Source of the DNA: Flavobacteriaceae bacterium
Lineage (GTDB): Bacteria > Bacteroidota > Bacteroidia > Flavobacteriales > Flavobacteriaceae
Direction of reading: 5' to 3'
Length of the DNA stretch: 32,000 nt
Assembly: GCA_965224465.1 (NCBI GenBank)
Contig: OZ245049.1
Span: 630,001-662,000, forward strand
This document shows positions 13,842 through 32,000 of this stretch, piece by piece. The position numbers were made by a program, and so were the translations under genes. The first letter of the stretch is position 1; each line of letters begins with the position of its first letter. The notes under the pieces were generated by a model. It was not told the origin of the DNA, ran no database searches, and saw only the letters and a program-made list of their open reading frames with translations.

Positions 13842-14726
13842 TTAACGATTAAATGGCTGACCATCAATCGTAAATTGAACTTTAAATTTAGAAGGTCTTT
13901 TAGAAGTTCCTTCAAAAATAGCTTTCACTTGAATTTTCACATCCTTACCAGCTACCATTTCTCTTGCCCATAAATTCTCCATATTCTTCCAAGCTCCTTG
14001 GTTCAATACTCCTTTTTGCGAGTACATATTAATTTGCTCTCCTGGCCCAAAAAAACGAGAAGCTACAATGTGCCCTCCCTGATCAGAACCTTTAATACCA
14101 TCTTTAATATCTACTGCCCGTATTTGTTGATTCCCTAAACGAATCCTTGCTATATCATCTAAATCTGCATTCGTTTTTACAACTCTACCTAAATCATCCG
14201 TTTGAAAAATGAAACCATCAACCTCATATTTCATGTTTTTAGCCAATGGGATTTTGTTTAAAATAGGATTACCTCTTGTTCCTATTACTGTTCTACCATT
14301 AGCTACAATTCTATCTTTATAAAACGTACCCCATTTTTTTCCCGTTCCATCAACTATTTCATATGCCTTATCAGCTATTTTATTATACTTCCAATTTGTA
14401 GGGAAATCATTTTTAAAGGTTTTTAATGCCATCTCTAAAACATCATCCACCGTATTAGCCAAGTAACCAACATAGTATTCAGAAAAATCATAGGTGTTTT
14501 GAGCTGAAACACTCTCAGACACTACAAACTTATACTTTTCTTTTAGAAAATCAATATTAGGTTGTTGCTCTTTTTCTAAAGAGTTTACTTTTTGATTATA
14601 ATCAATAGTAAAAATAACAGAATTTGTTGGTAAAACGACCACCGTTTTGGCATACGTGGTTTGTGCTCCTAACAAAAATGTTAGAAGGAATAGAAATATA
14701 TGTTTTATAAAATTAAGAAAGTTCAT
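13842..14726 (-). CDS. Small secreted polymorphic toxin, Endonuclease_NS_2-like (YeeF/YobL-type) nuclease tip
   Basis: The ATG at 14726 gives signal peptide MNFLNFIKHIFLFLLTFLLGAQTTYA. The C-terminus GSDQGGHIVASRFFGPGEQINMYSQKGVLNQGAWKNMENLWAREMVAGKDVKIQVKAIFEGTSKRPSKFKVQF matches the GH-N-N-W-ME-W layout of the PF13930-type DNA/RNA non-specific endonuclease toxin domain. The track start at 14756 is a TTG. Confidence 0.75.
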   Translation of the reverse strand: MNFLNFIKHIFLFLLTFLLGAQTTYAKTVVVLPTNSVIFTIDYNQKVNSLEKEQQPNIDFLKEKYKFVVSESVSAQNTYDFSEYYVGYLANTVDDVLEMALKTFKNDFPTNWKYNKIADKAYEIVDGTGKKWGTFYKDRIVANGRTVIGTRGNPILNKIPLAKNMKYEVDGFIFQTDDLGRVVKTNADLDDIARIRLGNQQIRAVDIKDGIKGSDQGGHIVASRFFGPGEQINMYSQKGVLNQGAWKNMENLWAREMVAGKDVKIQVKAIFEGTSKRPSKFKVQFTIDGQPFNR

Positions 14727-15204
14727 CTTCTTCGAAATAATGTCCTTCTTTATCAAAACGAATTAAAAATTCTTCTAAAGAATCTGCTATTTTTTCATTG
14801 AAATAATAAATATCATTTTTTTCTTCCCGAGCTTCTTTGTCTATAAGTAGATATAATCCTTCGTTTATTTCAAAAAAAATTAACTTATTTTGATATTCTA
14901 AACCATTGTATATCTCTAATTCAGGGTCTTCATCGTAATATCCCTCTCTATTATTAATTATTTTGAAGCTATTCGGGTTCAAAAATGTGTCGTTAGAATA
15001 TATTTTTTTGTGAAAAAAGAAACCATATCCAATTTCAGTATAAAATTTCTTTAATTCCAAAGGAATAGTTAATTCTGTGTCACATTTTTGTATTATGTCT
15101 TCACTTGATTTAAACAGCAAGTGTTTAAAATCATTATATTGACTTCTAATATTCTCATCTGTAGAAGGTAAAATATATTCTTTCAAAAATAAAAAATCAC
15201 TCAT
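14713..15204 (-). CDS. SUKH-1 (SMI1/KNR4) family immunity protein, copy 1
   Basis: 163 aa. TELTIPLELKKFYTEIGYGFFF matches the hallmark LP..lk.Fy...nG motif. Its stop overlaps the next toxin start (ATGAACTTTCTTAA). It differs from the copy at 16786-17277 by one residue. Confidence 0.75.
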   Translation of the reverse strand: MSDFLFLKEYILPSTDENIRSQYNDFKHLLFKSSEDIIQKCDTELTIPLELKKFYTEIGYGFFFHKKIYSNDTFLNPNSFKIINNREGYYDEDPELEIYNGLEYQNKLIFFEINEGLYLLIDKEAREEKNDIYYFNEKIADSLEEFLIRFDKEGHYFEEDELS

Positions 15205-15210
15205 CTTAAT

Positions 15211-15315
15211 TTATTTAAATAATTCTCTAGCTGGTGAACCTGCTCCATGTATCCCTCCTTGATGTTGGTCGGGGAATCTTTCTTGATGTGAATTCCACCA
15301 TTCATGTGGACCCGA
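15211..15315 (-). pseudogene. C-terminal stub of an older (probably HNH/EndoVII-type) toxin, copy 1
   Basis: My translation is SGPHEWWNSHQERFPDQHQGGIHGAGSPARELFK, with the stop (TAA at 15211-15213) 6 nt before the SUKH ATG. This is the position a toxin C-terminus would occupy. The His-rich H..W..H ... H.GG.H pattern is reminiscent of HNH-fold toxin ends. The frame hits a stop about 11 codons further upstream, inside the palindromic element. Confidence 0.45.
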
Positions 15316-15489
15316 TCGCGCGGAATTAAAATCCGTGCGTCCCCTCATACACAACAACTAACCCATAAATAACACACAAATATCTAATGCATATTTTAAG
15401 ATTTGCATGAGCAGCCTTATGTGATGTACTTTGTGGGCACGGATTTAAAATCCGCGCTATCACGTTGTTGGTATGTCCGCGCCATCGGG
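15311..15489. repeat. 179-bp nested-palindrome (MITE/BIME-like) element, REP family 2, copy 1
   Basis: Terminal inverted repeats are cccgatcgcgcgga (15311-15324) and tccgcgccatcggg (15476-15489). Two internal hairpins lie in opposite orientation: gcgcgga-attaaaa-tccgtgc (15318-15338) and gcacgga-tttaaaa-tccgcgc (15437-15457). There is also caacaac (about 15353-15360) against gttgttg (15464-15470). Confidence 0.75.
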
Positions 15490-15522
15490 ATTTTATGTAC
15501 TTTGTTATTTTAATTAATAAAA

Positions 15523-15966
15523 CTATCTACTTTCCATTTTATCATATATCTCCCCTGTATTAACATCCACTACAAAACGAAAACCATCCGCATAAACTTC
15601 AAGTAACTCTTTCCCTTTATATTTTTCAATATACTTTTTGTAATGCTCGGGAGTTATAAAATTTGATTCTTTTTTTTGTTCGGGGAAAATTTGACCAAAC
15701 CCGACAACATTATCATATGGTAATTGCCATTTTAATTTACCAGTAAAATCATAACAAAATAATTGACTTGGATTTGCTAAACACCTTTCTTTCCAAATTT
15801 GATGAGTTTCTAATTTACCCCAATCTAAATCATTCTCTAATGGAGTTGTTTTAAAACAAACGACTTCATTAAAAGATTCTACTTTATCTATAAAAGTAGA
15901 ACTTGGAAAATGAATTTTTTCATTGCCAACTTTTATGCTATTAGAAGATATTAACACGTATTTCAT
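15523..15966 (-). CDS. Putative immunity protein for the adjacent toxin (family not recognised)
   Basis: This 147-aa ORF begins 8 nt after the toxin stop, has no signal peptide, and is unique to this cassette. Confidence 0.55.
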   Translation of the reverse strand: MKYVLISSNSIKVGNEKIHFPSSTFIDKVESFNEVVCFKTTPLENDLDWGKLETHQIWKERCLANPSQLFCYDFTGKLKWQLPYDNVVGFGQIFPEQKKESNFITPEHYKKYIEKYKGKELLEVYADGFRFVVDVNTGEIYDKMESR

Positions 15967-15974
15967 CTATAAAA

Positions 15975-16799
15975 TTAATTTAGGTAATCAGACACGTCAC
16001 CCATTGGCTTGAACCAACTTTGTGGGATTGCAGGATTGTTTCTAATCTCAAATTGAACAGCTCCACCTGGTTGATGTACTTGACCTGGCCAGTCTTGTGG
16101 TCTTGCAACACTTTTTATAACTTTTGTTCCTGCAGGAACTTTCACTATCGATATTTGAGCAGGCTTTACAATATCCCCACTATTATCTAAAATAGGTAAA
16201 GCAAGTTTCTTAATCATATCATCTTGTGATGTAAATTTTTGAAAATCCTCTACCGAAATTAACCAAGGTCTATTAGGGTTCCAAGAATTATGAACCCTCA
16301 CAAACAAAGCTTCTTGTGACAAAACTATATCATCAATAGAATGGGCAAAATTATAAGGATTAACGAAACTGCTACTTGCATTAATTTCAGTCAATATCTC
16401 AGATTGAGAAACTACAGTTTTACTACCTAATGCATCTGTTTTAGAAACTTTTGAATAAAGACTTTTAGCCTCTGTTATTGTTAAGTTATCCCATTTAGCA
16501 ATTAAACTAGGAATATCATCCACCACCTCAGCCAAGTAACCAACATAGTATTCAGAAAAATCATAGGTGTTTTGAGCTGAAACACTCTCAGACACTACAA
16601 ACTTATACTTTTCTTTTAGAAAATCAATATTAGGTTGTTGCTCTTTTTCTAAAGAGTTTACTTTTTGATTATAATCAATAGTAAAAATAACAGAATTTGT
16701 TGGTAAAACGACCACCGTTTTGGCATACGTGGTTTGTGCTCCTAACAAAAATGTTAGAAGGAATAGAAATATATGTTTTATAAAATTAAGAAAGTTCAT
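15975..16799 (-). CDS. Small secreted polymorphic toxin with the same leader and a different tip (possible TNT-like NAD+ glycohydrolase)
   Basis: The first 90 aa from the ATG at 16799 are identical to the toxin at 13842-14726, and the sequence is unrelated after YYVGYLA. The tip LFVRVHN ... KKLALP ... ISIVKVPAGTKVIKSVARPQDWPGQVHQPGGAVQFEI resembles the R...LP...y.V.kp..v..G...PwfGqPGGg.Q layout of the TNT/DUF4237 domain. The family call is tentative. Confidence 0.6.
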   Translation of the reverse strand: MNFLNFIKHIFLFLLTFLLGAQTTYAKTVVVLPTNSVIFTIDYNQKVNSLEKEQQPNIDFLKEKYKFVVSESVSAQNTYDFSEYYVGYLAEVVDDIPSLIAKWDNLTITEAKSLYSKVSKTDALGSKTVVSQSEILTEINASSSFVNPYNFAHSIDDIVLSQEALFVRVHNSWNPNRPWLISVEDFQKFTSQDDMIKKLALPILDNSGDIVKPAQISIVKVPAGTKVIKSVARPQDWPGQVHQPGGAVQFEIRNNPAIPQSWFKPMGDVSDYLN

Positions 16800-17277
16800 C
16801 TTCTTCGAAATAATGTCCTTCTTTATCAAAACGAATTAAAAATTCTTCTAAAGAATCTGCTATTTTTTCATTGAAATAATAAATATCATTTTTTTCTTCC
16901 CGAGCTTCTTTGTCTATAAGTAGATATAATCCTTCGTTTATTTCAAAAAAAATTAACTTATTTTGATATTCTAAACCATTGTATATCTCTAATTCAGGGT
17001 CTTCATCGTAATATCCCTCTCTATTATTAATTATTTTGAAGCTATTCGGGTTCAAAAATGTGTCGTTAGAATATATTTTTTTGTGAAAAAAGAAACCATA
17101 TCCAATTTCAGTATAAAATTTCTTTAATTCCAAAGGAATAGTTAATTCTGTGTCACATTTTTGTATTATGTCTTCACTTGATTTAAACAGCAAGTGTTTA
17201 AAATCATTATATTGACTTCTAATATTCTCATCTGTAGAAGGTAAAATATATTCTTTCAAAAATAAAAAATTACTCAT
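16786..17277 (-). CDS. SUKH-1 (SMI1/KNR4) family immunity protein, copy 2
   Basis: 163 aa, with one substitution (D3N) relative to 14713-15204. It has the same 14-nt overlap with the downstream toxin start. Confidence 0.75.
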   Translation of the reverse strand: MSNFLFLKEYILPSTDENIRSQYNDFKHLLFKSSEDIIQKCDTELTIPLELKKFYTEIGYGFFFHKKIYSNDTFLNPNSFKIINNREGYYDEDPELEIYNGLEYQNKLIFFEINEGLYLLIDKEAREEKNDIYYFNEKIADSLEEFLIRFDKEGHYFEEDELS

Positions 17278-18047: not shown

Positions 18048-18494
18048 ATGGAAAATCAAAAAAATATATTCTCAACTTTAGTTTTGGAACAAAACCCAAG
18101 TTATGTTGAAGAATTAGAAAAGAAATACAATATTCAATTACCTCCTGTATTTAAAGCTTTTTGTGAGGTTTTCGCCTTAACATCTATACAGCCATCTGAT
18201 AATCATTACTTACTTTATCAGGATAAAGAAGTTGGGTTTGAAGAATTTGAACAATCATTAGAAGAACTTATATCTGTTTATATTACACAAGGAGAGTATT
18301 ATCAAAATAACAAAATGCTCCCTATAGCTACATCAGGCATTCATTCAGGTGGAATTTGTATTGGATTAGAAGGAAAAGACCAAGATAAAATATTCGTAGA
18401 CAATGAGTCTTACAATAATAGGTTTCAACCTATTGCTTCTAATATTCTAGATTTTATAAATAAGCTTTACGAAGTGCATTTTGATAATGTTTAG
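18048..18494 (+). CDS. SUKH-1 (SMI1/KNR4) family immunity protein
   Basis: 148 aa. VEELEKKYNIQLPPVFKAFCEVF is the SMI1/KNR4 hallmark. It starts 2 nt after the XRE stop. Its stop TAG (18492-18494) overlaps the stop TAA (18491-18493, opposite strand) of the WHH toxin. Confidence 0.75.
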   Translation: MENQKNIFSTLVLEQNPSYVEELEKKYNIQLPPVFKAFCEVFALTSIQPSDNHYLLYQDKEVGFEEFEQSLEELISVYITQGEYYQNNKMLPIATSGIHSGGICIGLEGKDQDKIFVDNESYNNRFQPIASNILDFINKLYEVHFDNV

Positions 18495-19309
18495 AAACCT
18501 AAAAATTCGAATAACCCCTGTAACTTTTTTGTAATTATAGATTTACCTCCAGAATGAGGAAACCCTCCCAAATTTCCTGTATGTACTTTACTCTTAGCAG
18601 GGAATAGAGTAAATCCATCTTCAACATGATGCCAAGTGTACTTTACCCATTTATTACCTTCAAATAATTCGAACAGAGAAGATATTGGTTTCCAACGATA
18701 ATTACCACTTACTAAAAACCCGTTAGGGTCTTTAGCAGGCCAAGAACTGCCAACTTTTTCTATACCAAATTTCTTTGCCAAAGAAGCATTTGCTTGAGTA
18801 AAATCAGTACTTCCTCCTGTTAAGTTTGGTGATTCAAATTTAAATTTTCCAGCACCCGTACCATCTGTAAAATTCAAGACAGGAGAATAACCTCTTAAAT
18901 CGGGAAGTCCATTTTTATAGGTGATAGAAACAGGGACACCATCTATTGTTTTTGTTGTAGTGTAATTTAATTGACCAGCATAACCTTCTGGGTGTTTTAG
19001 AGTACCATAAAAATCATCTAATTTTTGAAGTTGAGTATTAGTCAATTTGTCCAACTTAGATAAAAATGAAGCATCAGCAACATCATCTAAACTATTTATT
19101 AGTCTTTTTGCGTTAGTTAATTCTCCTAAAGCATCTAATTTTCTTATGATATTCGCTTTCCCCACCTTGTCAGCCAAAAGTCTTTGAGAAGTCTTTGAGA
19201 TATCTTCAACTAATTCATCAGGTAGTTTTTCAGATGCAATCAAGGACTTATTAAATTCTAAAACATCATCTGCACTTCTTTTCAATGCTTTCCCTAATAA
19301 AGCGTCTCC
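18491..19309 (-). pseudogene. Polymorphic toxin B, C-terminal segment with WHH-type HNH/EndoVII nuclease tip (cut off by IS66)
   Basis: The C-terminus KYTWHHVEDGFTLFPAKSKVHTGNLGGFPHSGGKS fits the WHH nuclease toxin pattern (WHH ... H ... H.GG). The frame is open upstream of the track start (a TTG at 19285), right up to the IS66 end at 19318. Confidence 0.75.
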
Positions 19310-19396: not shown

Positions 19397-19750
19397 ATGT
19401 TAGGATTAGGTACAGAACACACGTATTATTATCACTTATCTGCAGTTGATATGCGAAAAGGATTTAATGGATTAAGTGGATTAGTTAGTGAGCACATGGA
19501 ACAAGAGCGAGATAGAAATAGTGTTTATGCATTTATCAATAAGCAAAAAAATAAACTAAAACTTCTTCATTGGCGACCTGGAGGATTTGTACTGTATTAT
19601 AAACGATTGGAACGAGGTATTTTTGAGCTTCCAAAATACGACATTGAAGATGGATTAGTAGTTTTGAGTTATACCCAAATGGTTATGGTTTTAGACGGAA
19701 TTAGTATTATAAATACTCAGAAAAACGAACGTTATTTAGAGGCTAAATAA
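19397..19750 (+). CDS. tnpB: IS66 Orf2 (TnpB) protein
   Basis: 117 aa. VDMRKGFNGLSGLV ... FINKQKNKLKLLHWRPGGFVLYYKRLERG is the conserved IS66 Orf2 pattern. Confidence 0.9.
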   Translation: MLGLGTEHTYYYHLSAVDMRKGFNGLSGLVSEHMEQERDRNSVYAFINKQKNKLKLLHWRPGGFVLYYKRLERGIFELPKYDIEDGLVVLSYTQMVMVLDGISIINTQKNERYLEAK

Positions 19751-19793
19751 TTCAATAAAACTGTAGGTTTTACCTGCTATTTAGTCTTGTTTT

Positions 19794-21296
19794 TTGTATA
19801 TTTATAGTGTGGAAAACAATACAATAGACATACAAAAAGAGCTGGTAATTTTAAAGATTGAACTTGAAAAAACAGCTCAAGAACTAGCTGAAATTAAGCA
19901 GCAATACGAGCAGCTTAAAAGAATGGTTTTCGGGTCTAAAAGCGAACGTTTTATCCCTGTTGACACAAATCAATTGTCGCTTTTCGGAAAAATAATAGCT
20001 GAGAAAGAAGAGGCATACAAAAAACATATTGTAATCTACGAAAGAAAACAAAAGAAGAAAGGAAAGAAAAAACCTGTTCGCTCTTCTATACCTGCGCATT
20101 TTCCGCGAGTAGAAGAGATTATAGAGCCTAAGCACATAGAAGAAGGAGCTGTAAAAATAGGAGAAGAAGTTACAGAACTTTTAGAAATAACGCCTCTTTC
20201 CGTTTTTGTAAGACGAATTGTAAGACCTAAATATGCACTTCCGGAAGAAAAAGGCGTTGTTATAGCAGAATTACCAAGCTTACCGATACCTAAAGGAAAT
20301 GCATCAGCAAGTTTATTGGCCTTTATACTTATTTCAAAATTTGTAGACCATTTACCACTTTACAGATTAATTCAAATTTTTAAACGACAAGATTTAAAAG
20401 TAAGTAAATCAACAATTGGAGGATGGGTATCTAAAAGTTCGGAGCTTATCGCTCCTTTATACGATACATTTAAGGCTCAGTTTTTAGAAAATGCCAATTA
20501 TATTCAAGCAGACGAATCTCCTATAAAGGTTTTAGATAAAGACAAGAAAAAATCAACACACAGAGGGTATATGTGGGTGTATCGAAATCCTGTTAAAAAT
20601 TTAGTTCTTTTTGAATACAATAAAGGGAGAGGAAAAGTTGTTCCAGAAGAGTTTTTTAAAGATTTCAATGGGACACTACAGTCCGATGGGTATGCTGCAT
20701 ACCAAAACTTAACAACAAAAGGAGAAATTACTCTTTTAGGTTGCATGGCTCATGCTAGGCGGTATTTTGAGAAGGCGCTGGATAATGATCCTAAAAGAGC
20801 GGATGTTGTTTTGTTGGAAATTCAAAAGCTATACAAGATAGAACGTAAAATAAAAGAACAAGAATTAACTATTGAGCAAACTAAAGCATATAGAGAAAAA
20901 CATGCATCACCTGTTTTAGACGGAATAGAAATTTATCTTACAAAAGAGCGAAAAAACGTACTGCCTAAAAGTGCCATAGGAAAAGCAATTGCTTATACTC
21001 TTAAAATATGGCAAAACCTAAAACTATACATCGATGATGGCAGGTTTGAAATAGACAACAATAATATAGAAAATGCCATAAGACCTTTAGCTATTGGCAG
21101 AAAAAATTATCTCTTTGCTGGCAGTCATGAGTCCGCACAAAACATAGCTCTATTTTATAGCTTTTTTGCTACTTGCAAAAAGAATAACGTAAACCCACAT
21201 ACGTGGCTATGTGATGTCCTTAATAGATTACCAGAACATAAGGCTAATAAACTTTCGGAGTTACTGCCTCAAAATTGGAAGCCTGTTGATAAATAA
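19794..21296 (+). CDS. tnpC: IS66-family transposase (TnpC)
   Basis: About 500 aa. It has an N-terminal coiled coil with LKRMVFGSKSERF, a central HLPLYR and ADESPIKVL, and C-terminal CMAHARRYF and IENAIRPLAIGRKNYLFAGS. All are typical IS66 TnpC blocks. The exact start is uncertain because the track start is a non-ATG codon. Confidence 0.9.
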   Translation: MYIYSVENNTIDIQKELVILKIELEKTAQELAEIKQQYEQLKRMVFGSKSERFIPVDTNQLSLFGKIIAEKEEAYKKHIVIYERKQKKKGKKKPVRSSIPAHFPRVEEIIEPKHIEEGAVKIGEEVTELLEITPLSVFVRRIVRPKYALPEEKGVVIAELPSLPIPKGNASASLLAFILISKFVDHLPLYRLIQIFKRQDLKVSKSTIGGWVSKSSELIAPLYDTFKAQFLENANYIQADESPIKVLDKDKKKSTHRGYMWVYRNPVKNLVLFEYNKGRGKVVPEEFFKDFNGTLQSDGYAAYQNLTTKGEITLLGCMAHARRYFEKALDNDPKRADVVLLEIQKLYKIERKIKEQELTIEQTKAYREKHASPVLDGIEIYLTKERKNVLPKSAIGKAIAYTLKIWQNLKLYIDDGRFEIDNNNIENAIRPLAIGRKNYLFAGSHESAQNIALFYSFFATCKKNNVNPHTWLCDVLNRLPEHKANKLSELLPQNWKPVDK

Positions 21297-21324
21297 TCAA
21301 GGGTGTACTTTACCGTACGCTTAC

Positions 21325-22481
21325 ACTTAATGATACTATTTCTAACACAAACAGATATGTCCGCATCTTTTTACACAAATCTGTGTCACAATCAGAATAT
21401 TCTAAAGCAGTCCCTAAAGTCCCACTTGAAACTTCTACAGCTCCTACAAAAATTTTTAGTGTTTCTAATTTTTTCAGTGTCTTTAGATGCCTTAGGTGAC
21501 GAAGTTTCGCCAAATTCCCAACTCCAGAAAGGGTTGAAATCACATCTATAGTTAAATAAATACCGTTTTCAACATTACTGGTATAATTTTTAGATGCAAT
21601 AGCCTGTAATATGAATAAAGGTAAAACAGGAGATTTATCTGGGAAATTAAAATTAGTATCTATTTCTAGGTAATTAATTAAATTTACAGGTTGATAAATA
21701 CCAAATTCACCTATAAGACTTTCTGTTGTAAATTTATTTGGCATAGCTCCATACATGCCATTTGTTGCACCCCCAACATATTCAGTTTCATTCTTTATAA
21801 CTTTTATCTGAGCCGCGTTCTCGTTTAAATACAACTTATAATCACTTGTATAAAATCCAACTAGTTTGGAACTTGTATATGGGATTACTTCAAGATTTTT
21901 TTCTAAATTATTTTTAACATAATTAGACTCTTTCCAAATATAATACAATGTATGGATGTAAGTGGTGAAATTATCATCTCCTCCCCAATCATCTAACTTC
22001 TCAAATATTTTTCTATAAACAGTTTTTCCTTCAATTTTTTCAGAAAACAACCCATCCAAAAATTTAGTTTCATCCTGTTTTCCAAGTCCTTCAATAATAG
22101 TTAACACCGCCTTTTCTTCGTTAACCAATCGCTCATCAACACCACAAATTAACAAGCCTTTTAATGCATTCCATAACTGTTTATTATTAAACGTATTGGC
22201 AATATGAAAATTTGGGATTTCTGCAAAGTACAAATCGATGTCCCCACAATCAGGTAAGTTATCTGTAATGTAAGGAAGGTATTTTTTATCTAACCAAGAA
22301 ATAATATTCTTAGATACTTTTGTTCTTGAAATACTAGAACCAATAATTACTACTTTATCAAGGTCTATAATATTATCTTTTACATAATCCTCATATGTCA
22401 TGTCGGAGGGGATACCTAACATCTCCTTTGCATCCTCTTCTGTTGCAATATCTTCTTCCTCGATTTCGATATTATCTAAAG
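21325..22481 (-). pseudogene. Polymorphic toxin B, middle segment between the two IS elements
   Basis: The frame of track ORF 21310-22422 is open upstream to 22530 with no start codon (…NITLDNIEIEEEDIATEEDAKEMLGIPSD…), so it is an internal fragment. Its last 7 codons (VSVR*) are read from the IS66 end. Confidence 0.65.
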
Positions 22482-23507
22482 TAATATTATATGCTTGTCC
22501 GCTAGTTTCCCTAATATTTTTGTTGTATTTTCATAAAACATAAATAATCGATATGAGATTAATTGAATTTAGTGAGCACTACCCAGATGAAGCCAGTTGT
22601 AAAGCAGCATTTAAGTCCTATCGCGAAAAAGAAGGGGTTAAGTGTAAAAAGTGTGGAGGAACTACTCATTATTGGAAAAAGAAACGAGAACAGTGGGAAT
22701 GTAAAAACTGTACTCACAGAACAACGTTGAAAAGCGGTACTGTTATGCAAAGCAGTAAATTACCTTTTAAGTATTGGTTTATAGCTATGCATTTAATAAC
22801 AAGCACAAAAAAATCATTTTCGGCTAAAGAGATTCAACGTCAGATAGGTCATAAAAGATATGAGCCTATTTGGGCAATGGTTCATAAGTTAAGATGCGTT
22901 ATGGGGTTAAGAGACGATGAATATCAGCTTAGTGATGAGGTTGAATTGGATGATGGGTTTTTTGAAACCGTTTCAATAACAAGAGATAAAACAGCACCTT
23001 TAAAAAGGGGGCGAGGAAGTCAAAGACAATCAATAGTATTAGTAAGTATAGAGTCTAAACTAGAATCAGAACACTATAACAGCAAGAAACACAGGGTGAA
23101 TAAGAGAGTGAAATTCCTAAAGATGAAAGTAATCAGTTCTTTAAAGAAAGAAGAGGTAGCTCAAACTGTAAATCAAATGGTTGAAGGAGGTAGCAAAATA
23201 ATTTCCGATGGATCAAATAGCTTTAATGACTTGACTAAGGATTTTGAACTAGTCTCTAATGTTGTGCCAAAGAAAAATATCAATTCTATTTTACCTTGGG
23301 TTCACAAAGCAATTAGTAACGCCAAAAGGCTATTACTGGATGTCCATCATAGAATAGATGATGATTTTCTTCAAAATTACTTGAACGAGTACTGCTACAA
23401 ATTCAATAGGAGAACATTTAATAACTTATTCGACAGGCTTATGATTGCAGCGGTATCATATAGATGGAATTATCTTGGGGAAGTTAACGGATAAGCATAT
23501 AATATTA
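22482..23507 (+). mobile_element. IS1595-family insertion sequence (1,026 bp)
   Basis: The terminal inverted repeats are TAATATTATATGCTTGTCCGCTA (from 22482) and TAACGGATAAGCATATAATATTA (ending 23507), matching at about 21 of 23 positions. It holds a single transposase ORF. I could not find a target-site duplication. Confidence 0.75.
22553..23494 (+). CDS. IS1595-family (ISXO2-like) transposase with N-terminal zinc ribbon
   Basis: 313 aa. It has the zinc-ribbon cysteines CKKCGG ... CKNCTH and a DDE-type body. The C-terminal NYLNEYCYKFNRR is typical of IS1595/ISXO2-like transposases. Confidence 0.85.
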   Translation: MRLIEFSEHYPDEASCKAAFKSYREKEGVKCKKCGGTTHYWKKKREQWECKNCTHRTTLKSGTVMQSSKLPFKYWFIAMHLITSTKKSFSAKEIQRQIGHKRYEPIWAMVHKLRCVMGLRDDEYQLSDEVELDDGFFETVSITRDKTAPLKRGRGSQRQSIVLVSIESKLESEHYNSKKHRVNKRVKFLKMKVISSLKKEEVAQTVNQMVEGGSKIISDGSNSFNDLTKDFELVSNVVPKKNINSILPWVHKAISNAKRLLLDVHHRIDDDFLQNYLNEYCYKFNRRTFNNLFDRLMIAAVSYRWNYLGEVNG

Positions 23508-25291
23508 TCACCATTTATCCCTAGTGTTTTACAAAAATTTTCTATATCATCGTGATGGTCAAATTGAAATACAAATTTATTACCCAACCCATCGGATAAT
23601 TCAAGTTTATAGAATATATCAAAAACATTGAACAGAAATAAAAACCTACTCTTCTTTACTTTTAAAGACTCTGATTTATTATCTATACTAATTTGTGCTA
23701 TATTTCCACTAGGTTGCTGGACAAGATTAAAATTTAAACCTGTACTCTCAAATATATGATGATAATAACCACGAAGATTACATGGAATAGAACCATTTAC
23801 TTTAGAAGAACTACATTTTTTAATTTGATCTTTCCATTCTAGATTAGTTTTTTCTCCTGCATAAGTTTTTTTAATATGGTTCAGAATCCGATCCATTTGT
23901 TCCTTTTTATAAGAACTTGAAATACTTTCCCCTTCACCATCCCCATCAAAAATCCCAATCCTCAATTTCGGATTGTGTATGGCTTTCCAATGTACATAAG
24001 GTAAATGCTCTCCATTGTTATAATCTAGTAACCAATTGGTACTTCCTGTAGCATATTTATAACTATGAGAAGAAAACGGGTGTTTTAGTTGGAATGCACC
24101 GTGGGCGAGTTCGTGTGCTACGGTTATCCCCCCAGCCCCAAAAGGGGGAGAATTTGCGGTAAAAATATAACCGAATTGTCTGCCTAGTGGCATGAGTCCT
24201 TTTTCTCCTGCGGAGCTTGGCTGTTTGTCTGTTAAGATTAAATAATAAGCTTCAGGGTTAAAGTTACCATGCTCTTTTAATGCCTTATTTATACTACGCT
24301 GTTGCTCCGTGTATTGCGCTGCAAAGCCACTTTCTCCACTTTTTATAGTGCCGTCTGGTGTTAGACTGTTTAGGGTCGCTGTAAAATCGTTAATTACAGA
24401 AATATTTAGACTAACTGCTGCTTGTTGGTAAATAGCTTTTAGTTTTTTTGTAATGGCACTTGTATTCGCATTTGAAGTATTTACCAATACTACGACCACT
24501 TCCTTTATGGCAATTTGGTATTGCATAAAAGCCCCTGCTATTTGGTATTTATCGCCTTGTTTTACTAAGGCTTGGGTTTCTATATCGGCATCGCTTAGCG
24601 TTCCTTTTAATTTTAAGGTGTAAGAAGTACTAGTACTATCTACTTTTTTCAGTCCTACACCATCTTTGGTTTTAAAAATAATGTCTTGAGGTTTTATACT
24701 ATCGTTGGTAATTTTAAAATTGGCAACAATAAATTCTATCGTTCCTTTAGCTACCGCTTTGTAAGGCATGTAATAAGCTGTTCCTAACTTTTTGTACAAG
24801 TCCTTGGTTTGTGGCTGGCTTGAGTTGTAGGCGTCGAATCCAGTAGGCAGTGTTGCAGTAGGCAGTTGGGTGAACGTTACGGTGACACCTTGTGCGGTGA
24901 TGTTGATGGCTTCTCCTTTGCTGTTTACGCCTGTGGTGTTTTCCACAGTGGTAGTACCGCCTTCGGCTTGTGGACCTAATTCGGTTACATTTCCTTGTTC
25001 GTCTACATGGTGTTTTTTTGGTAGTACTGGTGGTTTTGCTTTGGAATCTCCGCTATCGGTTATTATATAGTCCTCTCCTCCAGATAATTCTACAATAGGT
25101 GCACCGCCTTTTCCTACTAATAATATATCTCCGTTGCTTGGGTCTACTAGGATTTCTGCTATTTGGAAGTTCACCTGTTTTACTACATACGTTCCCTGCT
25201 GTTTTTGGATAGGGTTCTGCTGTGCTACTGCTATTTGAAAAAAGCAGGAACATAGGAATAGTAGGATTGTATGTAGGTTTTTATGTGGCAA
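23508..25291 (-). pseudogene. Polymorphic toxin B, N-terminal segment (signal peptide + HExxH zincin-like region), cut off by IS1595
   Basis: The TTG start gives MPHKNLHTILLFLCSCFFQIAVAQQ (signal peptide), and the segment contains ITVAHELAHGAFQLKH. Region 23927-25156 is about 95-98% identical to 30771-32000. The last 12 codons of the track ORF (…LSVNFPKIIPSI*) are IS1595 sequence. Confidence 0.75.
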
Positions 25292-25331
25292 TATTTAGTT
25301 GTTTATCATTTTTTTTTGTTCTATTTGCATC

Positions 25332-25363
25332 GCCGCTAAGTCGGGAGACTTTGCGCAGCGGGT
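25332..25363 (+). repeat. REP-like hairpin, family 1
   Basis: gccgctaagtcgggagactttgcgcagcggg lies between the start of toxin B and the stop of the beta-propeller gene. Confidence 0.75.
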
Positions 25364-25432
25364 TTTTATAATTCCTAATAATTCATCCGTTAAGCCTAGT
25401 TTATCTTTTACTGCTTTTGGTAACTTTCTAGT

Positions 25433-26449
25433 TTAAACTACAATGTTATTTTCTTCTTTTTCAAAAATATGGAGAGTGTTATCTTGGGTCTGAATATAAA
25501 TGCGATTAGCATTCACATGAATACTCCCAATACCTCCATTTTCTGGTATAAATTCATGTTTAAAAACTAGGTTTTTAGAATTCATATCTAAAACCCCAAC
25601 TTTTGATTTATTATCTCCTAGTGTTTGTGTAAAATAGAAACAATCGTTTTTTACTGCACATCTATGGTCATGAATAGAATCAAAACCATTTTCTTTAATA
25701 AGGATATTAACATCCCATTCTTCTATTTCATTAGTAATAACATTGACTTTACATAAGATATTTTCAAATTTTGTGGTATAGATAAAATTGTTGTCTTTAA
25801 AAATACTAAATCCAAATCCATTATGCTTATATAGAACCTTTCCCGAATGCGCATCTAAACAAAATAAAGCGCCTTGCTCGTCTCCTGATACTGTAAAATA
25901 AATTTTATCAGATAATTCCAATATTTTACTACTTAAATAGGCTTTTTCTGAGTTAATTAAATCAGAAAAATCGTGTTTCCAAGTTACACCCCTTGATTCA
26001 AAGCTATTAAACACGATTAAACCAGTATTATATCTGGAATCACCCGCTTGTACAACACCATAATTAGTAAATAATTTTTGTCCTCCATTTTGAAGGATAG
26101 GGATCTCTATAATTTTATCTGATTTAAAGATAATTTTATCACTTTCTTCTAATGATACGTAGGCACTGAATTGAGAATTTATCTTATAATAAAATCTTCC
26201 ATCTTTTATTTCATCTACAATTCCATTAAAAGAATGAAAATATGTCTTTTTATCTTGGAAGTAATATATTCCATTTTCATATTTCCCTACGTTATTAGTT
26301 CCTTTTAACAATTCAAGTGTAAGAAGTTTTTTATAACATGGATAAAACTGATAAACATCTAAAAATTGTTTATCTCTTTTAATACAAATTATTTCACTGT
26401 CCTTATAAAGAACTCCACCTAATATTTTATTAATTATGTAATTCATCAT
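25433..26449 (-). CDS. Beta-propeller-like (PQQ-like repeat) putative immunity protein of the orphan toxin tip
   Basis: 338 aa. It shows recurrent blades of the form h-Y-F/I-x-T/S-x-D/G ... G-K/N-x-h-a-K/W (IYFTVSGDEQGALFCLDAHSGKVLYKH; CFYFTQTLGDNKSKVGVLDMNSKNLVFKH; RIYIQTQDNTLHIFE). Its ATG overlaps the orphan toxin stop (ATGA at 26446-26449). Confidence 0.55.
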   Translation of the reverse strand: MMNYIINKILGGVLYKDSEIICIKRDKQFLDVYQFYPCYKKLLTLELLKGTNNVGKYENGIYYFQDKKTYFHSFNGIVDEIKDGRFYYKINSQFSAYVSLEESDKIIFKSDKIIEIPILQNGGQKLFTNYGVVQAGDSRYNTGLIVFNSFESRGVTWKHDFSDLINSEKAYLSSKILELSDKIYFTVSGDEQGALFCLDAHSGKVLYKHNGFGFSIFKDNNFIYTTKFENILCKVNVITNEIEEWDVNILIKENGFDSIHDHRCAVKNDCFYFTQTLGDNKSKVGVLDMNSKNLVFKHEFIPENGGIGSIHVNANRIYIQTQDNTLHIFEKEENNIVV

Positions 26450-27262
26450 TTAAAAATCATGTTATAGTTAGTATCTACAAAATCCTCTATATAATTACTT
26501 GTAATCACATCTTCAAAATCTTTCATTTTAAAGAATTTTTTAAAGTTTGAAGCTTTTTCTGCATTATCTCCTTTAATTATTTTATTTATTGAACCCTTAT
26601 TCTCTTTCAACCAGGTCTTTAACTTTTCCGCAGTCATTTCTGTTTTATCCATACGATATTGAATTTCATTTAAATTATCCGCGTTAAACAAATCTCGTTC
26701 AATAAATTGCTCTTTTATAGTTTTACTAGATATACTTCCTGGTCCACTTTTGTATTCTGTTTTTAAATTTCCGGGTGTACAATTAACACAAAACAAATCA
26801 ATACTCGAATCATTATTAGTAGCTCTTGCATTGGGTACAGAATGCTCAAACCTAAGCTTTTTCCCTGCAAACTCTTTCCCGTTTGCATTTAAATCCCTTA
26901 AAACCCAATGTGCTCCTTGCTTTTGATTGTTGGTACCATTTTTAAAGGTACTTACTATTTTATCAAATTATCTATGGTTGTGTTTGGGTTCTGATGTACG
27001 AATTGACCAAACTTATTTAAATCGTTTAACACATCGGCATAAGATGCAGAAAGTGTTCCCGTTTTATATCCATTTAAAGACGCTAAAACTTCATCACTCA
27101 AACCAAGGGGTTCGAATGCAGGGCTTTTTCGTATGTCTGCCAAGGCCTGTATAGCATCCGTATTTCTTGTTAAGCCTATTGCTGGGTTATTCCCTCCTGT
27201 TCTTTTATTTATGTGTAATAACTGCCAACTCTCTGCCAATTCAAGTTTCTGAGCGGGTTCAA
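26446..27262 (-). pseudogene. Orphan polymorphic-toxin C-terminal module, frameshifted
   Basis: It begins with PAQKLELAESWQLLH; the 30 nt at 27225-27254 are identical to 28812-28841 inside toxin A. It has no own start and follows the upstream stop directly. Frame 1 stops at 26955-26957 (…NPNTTIDNLIK*). Another frame continues without a start as IVSTFKNGTNNQKQGAHWVLRDL…, joining track ORF 26446-26796. The shift must lie in ttgataaaatag (about 26955-26966). Confidence 0.7.
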
Positions 27263-27275
27263 TAATTATAAAACG

Positions 27276-28004
27276 TTATAAAACTGAACCATCTATTTGT
27301 AAAACACTACCATCAGAAATATTATATTTACTAGTCATAACCAATAATTTCTTCTTTAGTTTGGTGTAATACGGATGCCATTCAGTTAATCCTTCTTCTT
27401 CATCAAACATCAATGAATCTACCCATTTCAATCTTCTTTCAAACTCTGGATCATTACATAGTTTTGAGATAATCAATAATCTAAAAAGCCATGCTGCCCC
27501 ACCTGCTATAATTTCATGCCCATATTTCCCATCTACTTCTAATTGATTTACCTTTGCTAAAATATTCGGTAAAAAACTGTAATGTTCTACAAATTTAAAC
27601 CCCGACTTTTCTAAATAATTTACTAGCCAATCAGCAAATTCTTCAACCTCCTCCTTCTTTTTAAAGAAATTGTACATGTATTTATTTTTGAATAAAGTCT
27701 TAAAACTAAAATCTTTTACAGAGTTTAAAAAAAGTTCATCTTTAGGCTTATAACTAATTAGCGTATTTGTTGGTATCCCAATGTTCAGAATAACATCTTC
27801 TACTTCAAAAATTGAAGGCATTAAAGAACTAGCTCCAATAGTTCCATTTTCATTAAAATTAAACACACAAAAATAAACCTTGTCATCAAACCTTTTGAGA
27901 TAGCTTAGACCTGGTCTAGAATTTAATAATTTATAACTTCTTTCTAATAACAAGAAATTTAACCTATCAAATATAATTTTTTTTCTTACTTTTTTTTCAA
28001 TCAT
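27276..28004 (-). CDS. Putative immunity protein of toxin A (family not recognised)
   Basis: This 242-aa cytoplasmic-looking ORF starts 12 nt after the toxin A stop and sits between the toxin and the orphan module. Confidence 0.55.
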   Translation of the reverse strand: MIEKKVRKKIIFDRLNFLLLERSYKLLNSRPGLSYLKRFDDKVYFCVFNFNENGTIGASSLMPSIFEVEDVILNIGIPTNTLISYKPKDELFLNSVKDFSFKTLFKNKYMYNFFKKKEEVEEFADWLVNYLEKSGFKFVEHYSFLPNILAKVNQLEVDGKYGHEIIAGGAAWLFRLLIISKLCNDPEFERRLKWVDSLMFDEEEGLTEWHPYYTKLKKKLLVMTSKYNISDGSVLQIDGSVL

Positions 28005-28016
28005 TTAATTTACTTT

Positions 28017-31000
28017 TTAAATTAGTTCAATTGTTAAATTATCTATATCGTTTGCTGAGCCATGATCTGCAATTTTAAATATTTTTTGGTTAGATACCTT
28101 AAGAATATCATTTTCATTAAGATCAAATTCTAATTTAGTGTACTTCAATTTCATCTCAGTTTGTCCATTAATAATAGCTCCAAAACCTTCTTTTTGTCGA
28201 ATAGTAAATCCTGTTTTTTGACTCAATTTATTTTCAATGATAATAACATCTATAATTTCATTTGTAGATTTACTTCTTTTTATTAGTACAATATCTGCTT
28301 TCATAAATCCATTTTTAGTTATTAATGGTATTTCCGTCAAAACTTGATAATCTTCTAGTCTCTTAATTCCAATACTATTTGTTAACTTAGCAATAAATGA
28401 AGGATTACTTTTATCGTTTATAAGTGTAACAATATTTTCTCCCAATTTCCTTCCTTCTGCAGAATAATGTTGAAATCGTTCAATATTCTTACTGCGTTTA
28501 ATCCAATTTGACAGTTTAGTATCTTCATTTCGTCTTAATACTTCACCAATGATATCAAACTCATCAATACTAAGGTTCGCCCCTTTATGTGAGGTGATTC
28601 CTTTAACATATACTATATTTTCTTCTTTATTTAAAAGATTTAAAAACTCTTCATCACAATCATCAATAAACTTAGATAAAGTAGATTTACCATCTACATC
28701 TGTTAATCTTTTTATCAAATTTTGATTACTCTTATTTAATTTACTGAATTTCTCAATTTTAATAGGGTCGGTTTTGACAAAAGATTTTGGATTAAATTTA
28801 TGTAATACTTTCCAACTCTCTGCCAATTCAAGTTTCTGAGCAGGACTTTTACCATCAAACAAGATACGTAAACCGCTATTTATATCGGTTTTTAAGGCCT
28901 TTTTTAATTCGTCCGTAAAAGAGATAGGTAAATCGGATAAAAAGTTGAGTAAGTTGTCTATTTTCTCCAATGGTAAACCATCAACTCTAGCCCATTGCTT
29001 AGCCTCATCCAAATTAGCACTCATGGAGGATGAAAAATGTTTTTCACCTTTGCTTAGATCTACAATATAATTAGGATCATGTATCGAAAAATGAGTTATA
29101 ATCTTGCTATTATCTGTATGTGATATAATTTTAAATCGTTTGGCAGATTTTAATGCAAATACGCCGTATTGTGTTACTCCAACCGCTACAACACTAACAC
29201 CATACATACTAGCCTCTACGTAATCTCGTTCTTTGATTGCATAGATTATACCTATAGCGTCGGGTATAAAATCTAAGCCTGTTGGGGCGAGCATTAAGGA
29301 AGCTACATCAATTTTATCGTACACCAATTGTTTTTCATCAACAACTTTATACAGATGTTCATTTGTTAATGCGAAATACTGCCCATCGGCAAATTTTACA
29401 TTTGCCATATAATTTGATAAAAAATCCGATTTGTATTTATCAAAATGGAATTTTGCATAACTAATTCCTATATGTTCTAAACCTGCCTTTTTTACACTTG
29501 CGATATAAGGTTCTCTTAAATTTACAGGGTTATTATCTACAGGTAGATAATAATTCTCAGACTTATTTACAAAAGCTAATCTATCATTTTCAATTGCTTT
29601 TTTAAGTTCCTGTTCATACCCCTCTTTCCAAATCCTGTACTTTTCAATATATTCGGGTCGTAATATAATACCGTATCCATCACCAGTTTTAACGCTTTTA
29701 AAAGGATTTGGTCTCTTTGCTTCTATTCTTTTTACTGCATCAAAAGAGGGACTTTTTAATAATACCAAATGATTGATAAATGGATAGCCCTTTACATGTG
29801 TATTATTTGCTTTATAGATAGATTTTATTTCTCCCGATGCATTAAAAATTACAAATTGTAATTGTACAGGCTTTGGAATTTCTTTGTAGAAATTTAAAAA
29901 ATCACTATTAAAACTCTCTTTCTCTTTAAAATTAAACGATACCGATTCAAGTTCACCATTTCCATAACCACTACTATTATAACAATCAGTTGTATAATCG
30001 GTAAATAAAAAATTCTGTTCATAGCTACGGGATACTAAAATAAGCCCTGTATTTATGACTCCTGCCTTATCAATAGCTGTTTTAGCCATTGTTTGTAATT
30101 GAACATCGTTATATAAAGTATTAGTACCGGTTTTAAGAAAAATAACCAATACCTTATTCCCTGTATGATACTGTAATAACCGTAGTTTATCTTCGTATAC
30201 CTGAAGTTTAGATGCTTCTAATAGTGAATTATTTCCTATAAAACCAAAATGTTTAATCTCTCTATTTGGCGGGTATTCCGTTGCACTGTCATTTATTTCA
30301 CTATATAACAAGGCAAACTTCTCATTAACGGCATTTTGATGTGTTTCTAATATGGAGTCATAGTATGTAAATTGTTTGCATTTGTTCCCTTTAGGTTTTT
30401 CTTTACAGTTTACAGCTATCGTTTTAGTTATAATTTTTGAAGTAGAATCAATTTTCTTTCCTTTATGTTTTTTTGCCTCTTTCCATGTTGTTTGGTATAA
30501 TTTATTATTACATGGAGCTATATAGTGAAACCAATATACCTTTTTACTTTCATCAGATAAATCCACCAATTTAATCGGTAATTTTTCACCTCCAAAAACA
30601 TAATCATTTCCATTTGCTACATATTCTTTTCCTTTAAAATTAATCCCCCTTACCGCACCTTGCGGGATGTTAGTAGCATTGGGAACAGAACTTATAGAAG
30701 AATACGTAATAGAATTATTAACAAATGTAAAAGGCTGCCAATTAGCAGTTAAAAATACACGCTTTGATAATTCCCCTTCACTATCCCCATCAAAAACCCC
30801 AATCCTCAATTTCGGATTGTGTATGGCTTTCCAATGTACATAAGGTAAATGCTCTCCTTTGTTATAATCTAGTAACCAATTGGTACTTCCTGTAGCATAT
30901 TTATAACTATGAGAAGAAAACGGGTGTTTTAGCTGGAAGGCACCGTGGGCGAGTTCGTGTGCTACGGTTATCCCCCCAGCCCCCGAAGGGGGAGAATTTG

Positions 31001-32000
31001 CGGTAAAAATATAACCGAATTGTCTGCCTAATGGCATGAGTCCTTTTTCTCCTGCGGTGCTGGGCTGTTTGTCTGTTAAGATTAAATAATAAGCTTCAGG
31101 GTTAAAGTTACCATGCTCTTTTAATGCCTTATTTATACTACGCTGTTGCTCTGTGTATTGCGCTGCAAAGCCACTTTCTCCACTTTTTATAGTGCCGTCT
31201 GGTGTTAAACTGTTTAGGGTCGCTGTAAAATCGTTAATTACAGAAATATTTAGGCTAACTGCTGCTTGTTGGTAAATAGCTTTTAGTTTTTTTGTAATGG
31301 CACTTGTATTCGCTTTTGAAGTATTTACCAATACTACGACCACTTCCTTTATGGCAATTTGGTATTGCATAAAAGCCCCTGCTATTTGGTATTTATCGCC
31401 TTGTTTTACTAAGGCTTGGGTTTCTATATCGGCATCGCTTAGCGTTCCTTTTAATTTCAACGTATAGGAAGTACTAGTACTATCTACTTTTTTCAGTCCT
31501 ACACCATCTTTGGTTTTAAAAATAATGTCTTGAGGTTTTATACTATCGTTGGTAATTTTAAAATTGGCAACAATAAATTCTACCGTCCCTTTAGCTACCG
31601 CTTTGTAAGGCATGTAATAAGCTGACCCTAACTTTTTGTACAAGTCCTTGGTTTGTGGCTGGCTTGGGCTGTAGGCGTCGAATCCAGTAGGCAGTGTTGC
31701 AGTAGGCAGTTGGGTGAACGTTACGGTGACACCTTGTGCGGTGATGTTGGTGGCTTCTCCTTTGCTGTTTACGCCTGTGGTATTTTCCACAGTGGTAGTA
31801 CCGCCTTCGGCTTGTGGACCTAATTCGGTTACATTTCCTTGTTCGTCTACATGGTATTTTTTTGGTAGTACTGGTGGTTTTGCTTTAGGGTCTCCGCTGT
31901 CGGTTATTATATAGTCCTCGCCTCCAGATAATTCTACAATAGGTGCACCGCCTTTTCCTACTAATAATATATCTCCGTTGCTAGGGTCTACTAGGATTTC
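28017..32000 (-). CDS. Large polymorphic toxin A: zincin-like HExxH N-terminal region, long central region, PD-(D/E)xK (restriction-endonuclease-fold) nuclease-like tip; 5' end outside window
   Basis: The frame is open from 28017 to the window end. The track start at 31790 is an internal GTG, because 31791-32000 still aligns with toxin B codons (the B start would map about 135 nt beyond the window). It contains ITVAHELAHGAFQLKH. The C-terminus KADIVLIKRSKSTNEIIDVIIIENKLSQKTGFTIRQ fits a D ... ExK ... Q nuclease core. Confidence 0.8.
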   Translation of the reverse strand, partial: EILVDPSNGDILLVGKGGAPIVELSGGEDYIITDSGDPKAKPPVLPKKYHVDEQGNVTELGPQAEGGTTTVENTTGVNSKGEATNITAQGVTVTFTQLPTATLPTGFDAYSPSQPQTKDLYKKLGSAYYMPYKAVAKGTVEFIVANFKITNDSIKPQDIIFKTKDGVGLKKVDSTSTSYTLKLKGTLSDADIETQALVKQGDKYQIAGAFMQYQIAIKEVVVVLVNTSKANTSAITKKLKAIYQQAAVSLNISVINDFTATLNSLTPDGTIKSGESGFAAQYTEQQRSINKALKEHGNFNPEAYYLILTDKQPSTAGEKGLMPLGRQFGYIFTANSPPSGAGGITVAHELAHGAFQLKHPFSSHSYKYATGSTNWLLDYNKGEHLPYVHWKAIHNPKLRIGVFDGDSEGELSKRVFLTANWQPFTFVNNSITYSSISSVPNATNIPQGAVRGINFKGKEYVANGNDYVFGGEKLPIKLVDLSDESKKVYWFHYIAPCNNKLYQTTWKEAKKHKGKKIDSTSKIITKTIAVNCKEKPKGNKCKQFTYYDSILETHQNAVNEKFALLYSEINDSATEYPPNREIKHFGFIGNNSLLEASKLQVYEDKLRLLQYHTGNKVLVIFLKTGTNTLYNDVQLQTMAKTAIDKAGVINTGLILVSRSYEQNFLFTDYTTDCYNSSGYGNGELESVSFNFKEKESFNSDFLNFYKEIPKPVQLQFVIFNASGEIKSIYKANNTHVKGYPFINHLVLLKSPSFDAVKRIEAKRPNPFKSVKTGDGYGIILRPEYIEKYRIWKEGYEQELKKAIENDRLAFVNKSENYYLPVDNNPVNLREPYIASVKKAGLEHIGISYAKFHFDKYKSDFLSNYMANVKFADGQYFALTNEHLYKVVDEKQLVYDKIDVASLMLAPTGLDFIPDAIGIIYAIKERDYVEASMYGVSVVAVGVTQYGVFALKSAKRFKIISHTDNSKIITHFSIHDPNYIVDLSKGEKHFSSSMSANLDEAKQWARVDGLPLEKIDNLLNFLSDLPISFTDELKKALKTDINSGLRILFDGKSPAQKLELAESWKVLHKFNPKSFVKTDPIKIEKFSKLNKSNQNLIKRLTDVDGKSTLSKFIDDCDEEFLNLLNKEENIVYVKGITSHKGANLSIDEFDIIGEVLRRNEDTKLSNWIKRSKNIERFQHYSAEGRKLGENIVTLINDKSNPSFIAKLTNSIGIKRLEDYQVLTEIPLITKNGFMKADIVLIKRSKSTNEIIDVIIIENKLSQKTGFTIRQKEGFGAIINGQTEMKLKYTKLEFDLNENDILKVSNQKIFKIADHGSANDIDNLTIELI

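Follow-up and report, generated by a model that had tools for sequence, protein, structure and literature searches.

The 32,000-nt stretch of Flavobacteriaceae DNA analysed here (contig OZ245049.1, positions 630,001 to 662,000 of the forward strand; hereafter the window) carries the gene of a toxin, toxin A, followed by a presumed immunity gene, a second toxin tip without a start codon, and a gene encoding a 338-aa protein. We consider it probable that the latter two are an orphan toxin/immunity module within a polymorphic toxin locus of Flavobacteriia, in which a displaced tip is decaying while its immunity gene has been retained. The evidence comprises a DNA repeat found at both tip junctions, a frameshift in the orphan tip, homology of this tip to the ends of full-length toxins elsewhere, and its conserved pairing with the 338-aa gene. 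Every relevant feature lies on the minus strand, in the order toxin A, 242-aa gene, orphan tip and 338-aa gene.

A junction repeat links toxin A and the orphan tip

The toxin A gene (28017..32000; its 5' end lies beyond the window edge) belongs to a protein of 1,372 aa (P0008) with a signal peptide and, at ~residue 393, a HELAH metallopeptidase-like module. Its C-terminal tip (tip A, 28017..28811, including the stop codon) is followed by the presumed tip A immunity gene (27276..28004), which encodes 242 aa. The orphan module begins at 27275, right behind the stop of that gene and in the same frame (...*RFIIIEPAQKLELAESW). The first-pass annotation of this DNA had described a start-less module at this point, and the orphan was indeed found to have no ATG and no signal peptide, containing only an internal TTG at 27239. 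A scan of 25200-28200 for promoters and terminators returned nothing better than was obtained with shuffled sequence.

Both tips open with the same DNA. The 30-mer GCTCAGAAACTTGAATTGGCAGAGAGTTGG, referred to as the handle, is present exactly twice, once within toxin A (28812..28841, coding for AQKLELAESW) and once at the 5' end of the orphan (27225..27254), at a spacing of 1,587 bp; no match was found in 100 shuffles, and the repeat described by the first-pass annotation is therefore real. It forms part of a wider repeat of 53 nt with 85% identity and the same spacing (28792-28844 and 27205-27257). Alignment of the two regions shows that identity begins at the Pro codon and fades within ~20 nt past the Trp codon, with a sharp drop on both sides and no similarity farther out. 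The orphan keeps just the final 11 codons (PAQKLELAESW) of an adaptor that precedes the tip in toxin A, and its 5' cut coincides with the start of identity. Past the handle, toxin A continues for 264 aa and the repaired orphan for 259 aa, as expected from the earlier estimate of ~260 aa for both. It had also been stated that everything downstream of the handle differs. This holds for the DNA but not for the proteins, since the two tip families are remote homologues (hhalign probability 97%, E 7e-11, over 183 columns including the adaptor).

The common 30 nt could in principle reflect selection on a conserved peptide helix only, with no recombination linking the two copies, and in many genomes both tip families begin with a conserved ELxxxW. 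However, elsewhere in these families the site differs in peptide as well as in length (ELVDAW, LIDSW, ELLDGW and others), and the coding sequence flanking the handle is only ~25-30% identical at the protein level. Furthermore, all ten codons are identical between the two copies, including the minority codons CTT, CAG and GAG, for which the chance given the same residues is ~2.6e-4 under the window's own codon usage. Peptide selection would also leave the cut of the orphan exactly at the start of identity unaccounted for, and we regard this explanation as very improbable. As codon-level identity goes beyond what peptide selection would maintain, the two handle copies share recent DNA ancestry.

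Alignments place the handle in a wider context. Both tip families have in common an N-terminal adaptor of ~45 aa with the pattern (A/L)LxxD(I/L)...F...(E/D)LxxxW/YxxL..G, located behind the body in long toxins and behind a signal peptide and Cys in short forms, and the handle corresponds to the last helix of this conserved adaptor. ELxxxW was recovered at the tip junctions of homologous full-length toxins (P0009, P0101, P0113, P0146, L005, L007 and L008 among them), and the orphan-tip reading thereby withstands the refuting condition that the first-pass annotation had set for the handle. By these alignments the handle is not special to this locus, but belongs to an adaptor common to two tip families. 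Since the adaptor helix is a conserved boundary for the joining of different tips, the handle takes the part that VENN has in CdiA and DPxGL in Rhs. A metagenome scan with the 18-mer coding for ELAESW gave 36 matches, none of them toxin-like, and all are put down to chance.

Junction repeats were also observed in two other orphan arrays. In Myroides sp. WP-1 (L006) a 60-nt junction repeat is present in three copies with 85-100% identity, while Hymenobacter montanus BT664 (L009) has repeats of 60 nt and 42 nt that the 3' part of the main PT-HINT toxin gene has in common with a site just behind the beta-propeller-like gene. Handle-type repeats hence seem general in these arrays.

Full-length toxins carry the orphan tip family

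A profile of the orphan tip was searched against 1.84 billion representatives, yielding 208 relatives (cluster representatives). In many of these the tip makes up the C-terminal 270-300 residues of a protein of 1,000-2,656 aa, which provides the full-length toxins with this tip that the first-pass annotation had proposed to look for. A scan of one genome per species identified ten loci with the orphan-tip family. In three of the ten, the tip ends a full-length signal-peptide toxin (L005 from Aggregatimonas, 1,907 aa; L007, 1,832 aa; L008, 1,837 aa), and in the remaining loci it occurs as a start-less fragment or a short secreted form. Carriers with an orphan-family tip as C-terminus include L005, L007, L008, P0101, P0102, P0103, P0113 and P0009, and the HExxH module of toxin A was present in all full-length carriers tested.

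One of these carriers, P0009, is a paralogue from the same genome. It measures 1,392 aa, has a body 50% identical to that of toxin A, and bears an orphan-family tip after GELAESWQLL.

The orphan tip is one domain split by a frameshift

The orphan reads as a single toxin domain broken by a 1-nt frameshift in this sequence. Its 5' part (frame A, 26955..27260), which corresponds to the helical subdomain, reads EPAQKLELAESWQLLHINK...TTIDNLIK and runs into a premature stop at 26955-26957. The 3' part (frame B, 26446..26967) stays open from 26967 until a stop at 26446-26448, reading FDKIVSTFKNG...NYNMIFK; it contains the predicted catalytic core with E139, D155, E169-x-K171 and Q185 (numbering of the repaired protein). 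A search with the joined sequence retrieved seven homologues, five of which span the junction in one frame. When matched to the hidden Markov model (HMM) of the family, frame A covers positions 44-131 and frame B positions 131-294. As the two halves abut at 131, nothing is missing from or duplicated in the orphan tip.

Homologues read LENFDKIV at the site of the lesion. The simplest lesion is therefore the loss of one T from aatTTTgat (26965-26967), and restoring one T in this TTT run is the best repair for the 13-nt frameshift stretch (26955..26967). A repair in the A run (giving …NLIKIV…) was dropped in favour of the T run because homologues have NFDKIV. The frameshift previously placed near 26955-26966 is thus genuine in this sequence and backed by homologues, while the lesion sits at the edge of the stretch that had been named and not in its A run.

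The lesion and the handle together bear on whether the orphan might be a live spare. In such a scheme the frameshift would be an assembly error and the handle would be kept for a tip swap by recombination, which would remove tip A and the accompanying immunity gene and leave toxin A armed with the orphan tip. A handle-to-handle fusion, as put forward in the first-pass annotation, would be in frame, the identical codons point to recent DNA exchange, and the lesion sits in a homopolymer run. There are precedents as well: recombination between main gene and orphan has been shown experimentally for Rhs (PMC3967940), and a natural deletion fusing an orphan to cdiA is on record (PMC3150448). The product of the fusion, however, would now end 94 residues past the handle, which for the time being leaves the orphan unusable as a spare. 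Thirty nucleotides lie near the lower limit for RecA-dependent exchange, which counts against a functioning switch. The homology available is 30 nt if perfect and 53 nt at 85%, compared with 522 bp at 95% in Salmonella Rhs. Moreover, orphan tips of the family are degraded elsewhere too, with L013 frameshifted and L006, L009 and L011 cut deep into the tip, and the locus shows other damage in the form of IS1595 and IS66 insertions. We therefore judge a live spare to be unlikely. With homology so far below that of Salmonella, the handle is more likely to be mainly a scar of past exchange than an efficient switch.

The 338-aa gene accompanies the tip

The gene for the 338-aa protein (25433..26449) presumably confers the cognate immunity. 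It is intact, and its start overlaps the tip stop (ATGA), as the first-pass annotation had it. We examined the pairing in 12 independent loci, obtained by adding L001 and L004 to the ten scanned loci and removing duplicates. In all 12 the tip is followed by a homologue of the 338-aa gene, and a stop/start overlap is seen in 11 of them, so that the proposed pairing of the two genes is well conserved. The partner remains full-length where the tip has been shortened (L006, L009, L011) or frameshifted (L013 and the window).

The 338-aa protein is likely to be beta-propeller-like, judging from remote matches. Against Pfam and NCBIfam only sub-threshold matches to PQQ_2, ACSF4-propeller and BamB were obtained. 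PQQ_2 is matched by 11 of 13 family members, again below threshold (best E 4e-5; window protein 0.008), and BamB chains are the best PDB match, at a non-significant E of ~0.45.

The partner could alternatively be a co-transferred accessory, such as a chaperone or a protein that assists the tip in delivery or receptor binding. Beta-propellers often act as binding platforms, and this family has no entry among the Pfam immunity families. Set against this is the position of the gene, which is that of an immunity gene: 3' of the tip, nearly always with the stop/start overlap, and behind full-length toxins and orphans alike. The protein also has no signal peptide. Finally, an intact partner next to a dead toxin fits protection and not a helper of that toxin. 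An accessory role is accordingly distinctly improbable. The pattern is as expected of a cytoplasmic immunity protein that has outlived its toxin, and we infer immunity from this conserved arrangement.

Predicted fold of the tip

An AlphaFold2 model of the repaired orphan tip, built on a 56-sequence alignment, reached a pLDDT of 95.4 and a pTM of 0.89 (the tip A model has a pLDDT of 90.2). In this model a helical region (residues 1-130) lies ahead of an alpha-beta-beta-beta-alpha-beta core (H111-126, E135-143, E151-158, E166-172, H179-193, E200-205), with E139, D155 and E169-x-K171 placed on three consecutive core strands. D155 is invariant among the 56 sequences, and conservation reaches at least 90% at E139, E169 and K171. 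The corresponding invariant residues of tip A are E206, D219 and E239-N-K241, along with Q252 within an invariant RQKEGFG, and the hhalign pairing of the two families aligns their E, D and ExK residues.

A Foldseek search of BFVD placed PD-(D/E)xK proteins at ranks 2-4, 14 and 16 with non-significant E of 0.3-4, and a large share of the other named matches in the top 40 were likewise PD-(D/E)xK proteins (E 0.3-4). Nucleases of this type predominate among the low-ranking matches of the fold searches in general. On the basis of topology and motif we lean towards classing the tip as a PD-(D/E)xK nuclease. It would act as a Mg-dependent enzyme of this type in the target cytoplasm, the catalytic core following a helical subdomain of ~100 aa. 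A core of this kind had been guessed in the first-pass annotation; the D...ExK residues did turn out to be the conserved ones of the family, while a significant fold match to a known nuclease was not obtained.

The sole significant BFVD match was A0A8S5LH46 (E 6.5e-10, TM 0.59), a protein of 918 aa annotated as an 'M12 metallopeptidase' fragment and assigned to a virus ('Siphoviridae sp.'). It spans the whole orphan-tip model and looks like a toxin of the tip family, encoded either by a phage or by a bacterial contig that was misassigned.

Proposed history of the module

In the history we favour, toxin A or its ancestor would once have ended in the present orphan tip, and the beta-propeller-like gene would have provided immunity to it. 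Tip A would then have come in together with its own immunity gene, as a cassette, by recombination inside the adaptor helix (PAQKLELAESW), duplicating ~33 nt and displacing the resident tip/immunity pair downstream by 1,587 bp. The event may alternatively have been the integration of a circle with a single handle. One recombination in the adaptor helix would account for three features together: the handle is present twice, its copies bracket a unit of 1,587 bp, and the orphan is truncated at its 5' end. The displaced tip would have been left without a start codon or export signal and would later have lost one base, severing its catalytic half while the immunity gene stayed intact. This gene presumably guards against neighbours that deploy the same tip family, its beta-propeller-like product binding and blocking the tip.

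Comparison of the two tip families suggests that the orphan tip is the earlier resident, because P0009 and many long toxins bear this tip. In contrast, the 41 homologues recovered for tip A are without exception short (149-377 aa), and those with a visible N-terminus have a signal peptide and the same adaptor. The short-only distribution fits tip A as the incoming part. One tip A homologue was checked in its genome (P0246, Galbibacter), and a homologue of the 242-aa gene with 42% identity lies directly behind it.

Several points weigh against a displaced and decaying module with retained immunity. The orphan could equally be a later arrival, the order of events being unreadable from one genome, and a mistake of the assembly within a short run of T could have produced the frameshift. 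The propeller assignment draws on sub-threshold PQQ_2 and BamB matches. Both tips, toxin A and the 242-aa protein were searched against Pfam and NCBIfam with no match, and a search of PDB sequences with the tip profile gave nothing below E 0.2. At the level of structure, Foldseek found no PDB match to either tip model at E ≤0.001, and no known nuclease was significant in PDB (E ≥0.6) or in the BFVD search (E ≥0.3).

Relation to known orphan modules

In kind, the arrangement is already known from orphan cdiA-CT/cdiI and Rhs orphan modules; it occurs here in a toxin family for which the domain databases searched contain no entry for tip, junction or immunity protein. The likeness to the orphan tips of contact-dependent growth inhibition (CDI) and Rhs loci drawn by the first-pass annotation is borne out by the start-less tip, the retained junction motif, the abrupt loss of identity and the presence of an own immunity gene. 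As in orphan cdiA-CT/cdiI modules (Poole et al. 2011, PMC3150448), the tip lies directly behind the immunity gene of the main toxin, retains that toxin's junction motif and precedes an immunity gene of its own. Further parallels to that system are an identity that falls abruptly past the junction, cassettes running from junction to junction, insertion sequence (IS) elements in the array, and related tips on full-length toxins elsewhere. Unlike CdiA, toxin A has no Pfam match for a TPS domain or FHA repeats, and VENN (DUF638) is absent from P0008. The junction here is instead an ELxxxW helix in an adaptor of ~45 aa, and the retained homology is only 30 nt.

Orphan Rhs-CT/RhsI modules (Koskiniemi et al. 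2014, PMC3967940) similarly have neither initiation nor export signals, and an orphan of either system could be armed by recombining with the main gene through the common upstream sequence. Toxin A differs from Rhs proteins in having no YD repeats (no Pfam match) and no DPxGL motif. A further difference is that the homology amounts to 30-53 nt here against 522 bp for Rhs, and that the orphan described here is frameshifted, which would leave a fusion inactive.

The tip also resembles the Tox-REase families (Zhang et al. 2012, PMC3482391) in being the C-terminal tip of a multidomain secreted protein with an immunity gene behind it, and it shares the conserved E, D, ExK and Q of Tox-REase-1. It does not, however, match any Pfam Tox-REase model, and its partner is beta-propeller-like as opposed to the Imm-PA2201 or Imm49 of REase-1. 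According to Zhang et al. (2012, PMC3482391), polymorphic toxins in general recombine with stand-alone cassettes, and Bacteroidetes are listed there among the lineages with many toxin and immunity families.

A broader proposal, which we put forward tentatively and hold to be rather doubtful, is that the ~45-aa adaptor is an undescribed pre-toxin junction domain of Bacteroidota. It would serve as a common splice point for REase-like tips with their immunity genes. Tips would be exchanged as junction-to-junction cassettes of ~1.6 kb between long HExxH/fn3 toxins and small signal-peptide toxins, possibly after excision as circles and re-integration through a single crossover. The tip would form a new toxin/immunity pair with its beta-propeller-like partner, in which the propeller blocks a nuclease.

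The locus would extend the orphan-cassette logic of CDI and Rhs to a Flavobacteriia toxin superfamily without known secretion route or annotated domains. Three objects emerge from it that are open to experiment. The tip family lacks annotation, comprises 208 cluster representatives and could be modelled with confidence; its conserved beta-propeller-like partner may represent a novel class of nuclease immunity proteins; and a conserved adaptor helix marks the site of tip exchange. Apart from these, it would be an ordinary case of tip displacement and decay with retained immunity.

Neighbouring toxin genes and mobile elements

Between the beta-propeller-like gene and the next toxin gene, a frame at ~25360-25400 (minus strand) reads KLGLTDELLGIIK. 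It resembles the LGLTDE motif of the helical subdomain of the tip and could be a scrap of another orphan, but the HMM E of this possible further remnant (LGLTDELLGIIK) is 0.37 and not significant, and it was rejected.

The next toxin gene, toxin B (25291-23456, minus strand), has its 3' end overlapped by an IS1595-type transposase gene (22553-23494, plus strand), and is therefore probably disrupted. The first 455 residues are 96-98% identical among toxin B (23456-25291), toxin A (30300-32000) and P0009. The block contains the signal peptide together with the HELAH module, and P0010 has a match to it at 579-1000. Outside it, the bodies of toxin A and P0009 are ~50% identical. Such a mosaic suggests gene conversion or a recent exchange of the N-terminal module.

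Farther on, an IS66 unit (TnpB and transposase) occupies 19397-21296 on the plus strand. A frame of 370-406 aa without known domains (21310-22530, minus strand) and a 264-aa fragment with a WHH/HNH-nuclease tip (18491-19285, minus strand) may be pieces of one disrupted toxin gene. The WHH fragment lies tail to tail, with a 4-nt overlap, with a SUKH/SMI1 immunity-type gene (18048-18494, plus strand), an orientation unusual for a toxin/immunity pair.

A tandem pair of small toxin units is located at 13842-17277 (minus strand). Each unit has a near-identical 163-aa SUKH/SMI1 gene that overlaps the gene of a signal-peptide protein, with a small unannotated gene behind it. The first ~100 residues of the signal-peptide proteins are common and the remainder is divergent; one tip is a DNA/RNA non-specific endonuclease domain (E 2.6e-26), and the other has no known domain. 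Unrelated to the orphan module, a gene at 6111-6866 (minus strand) encodes an NYN ribonuclease domain fused to OST-HTH/LOTUS.

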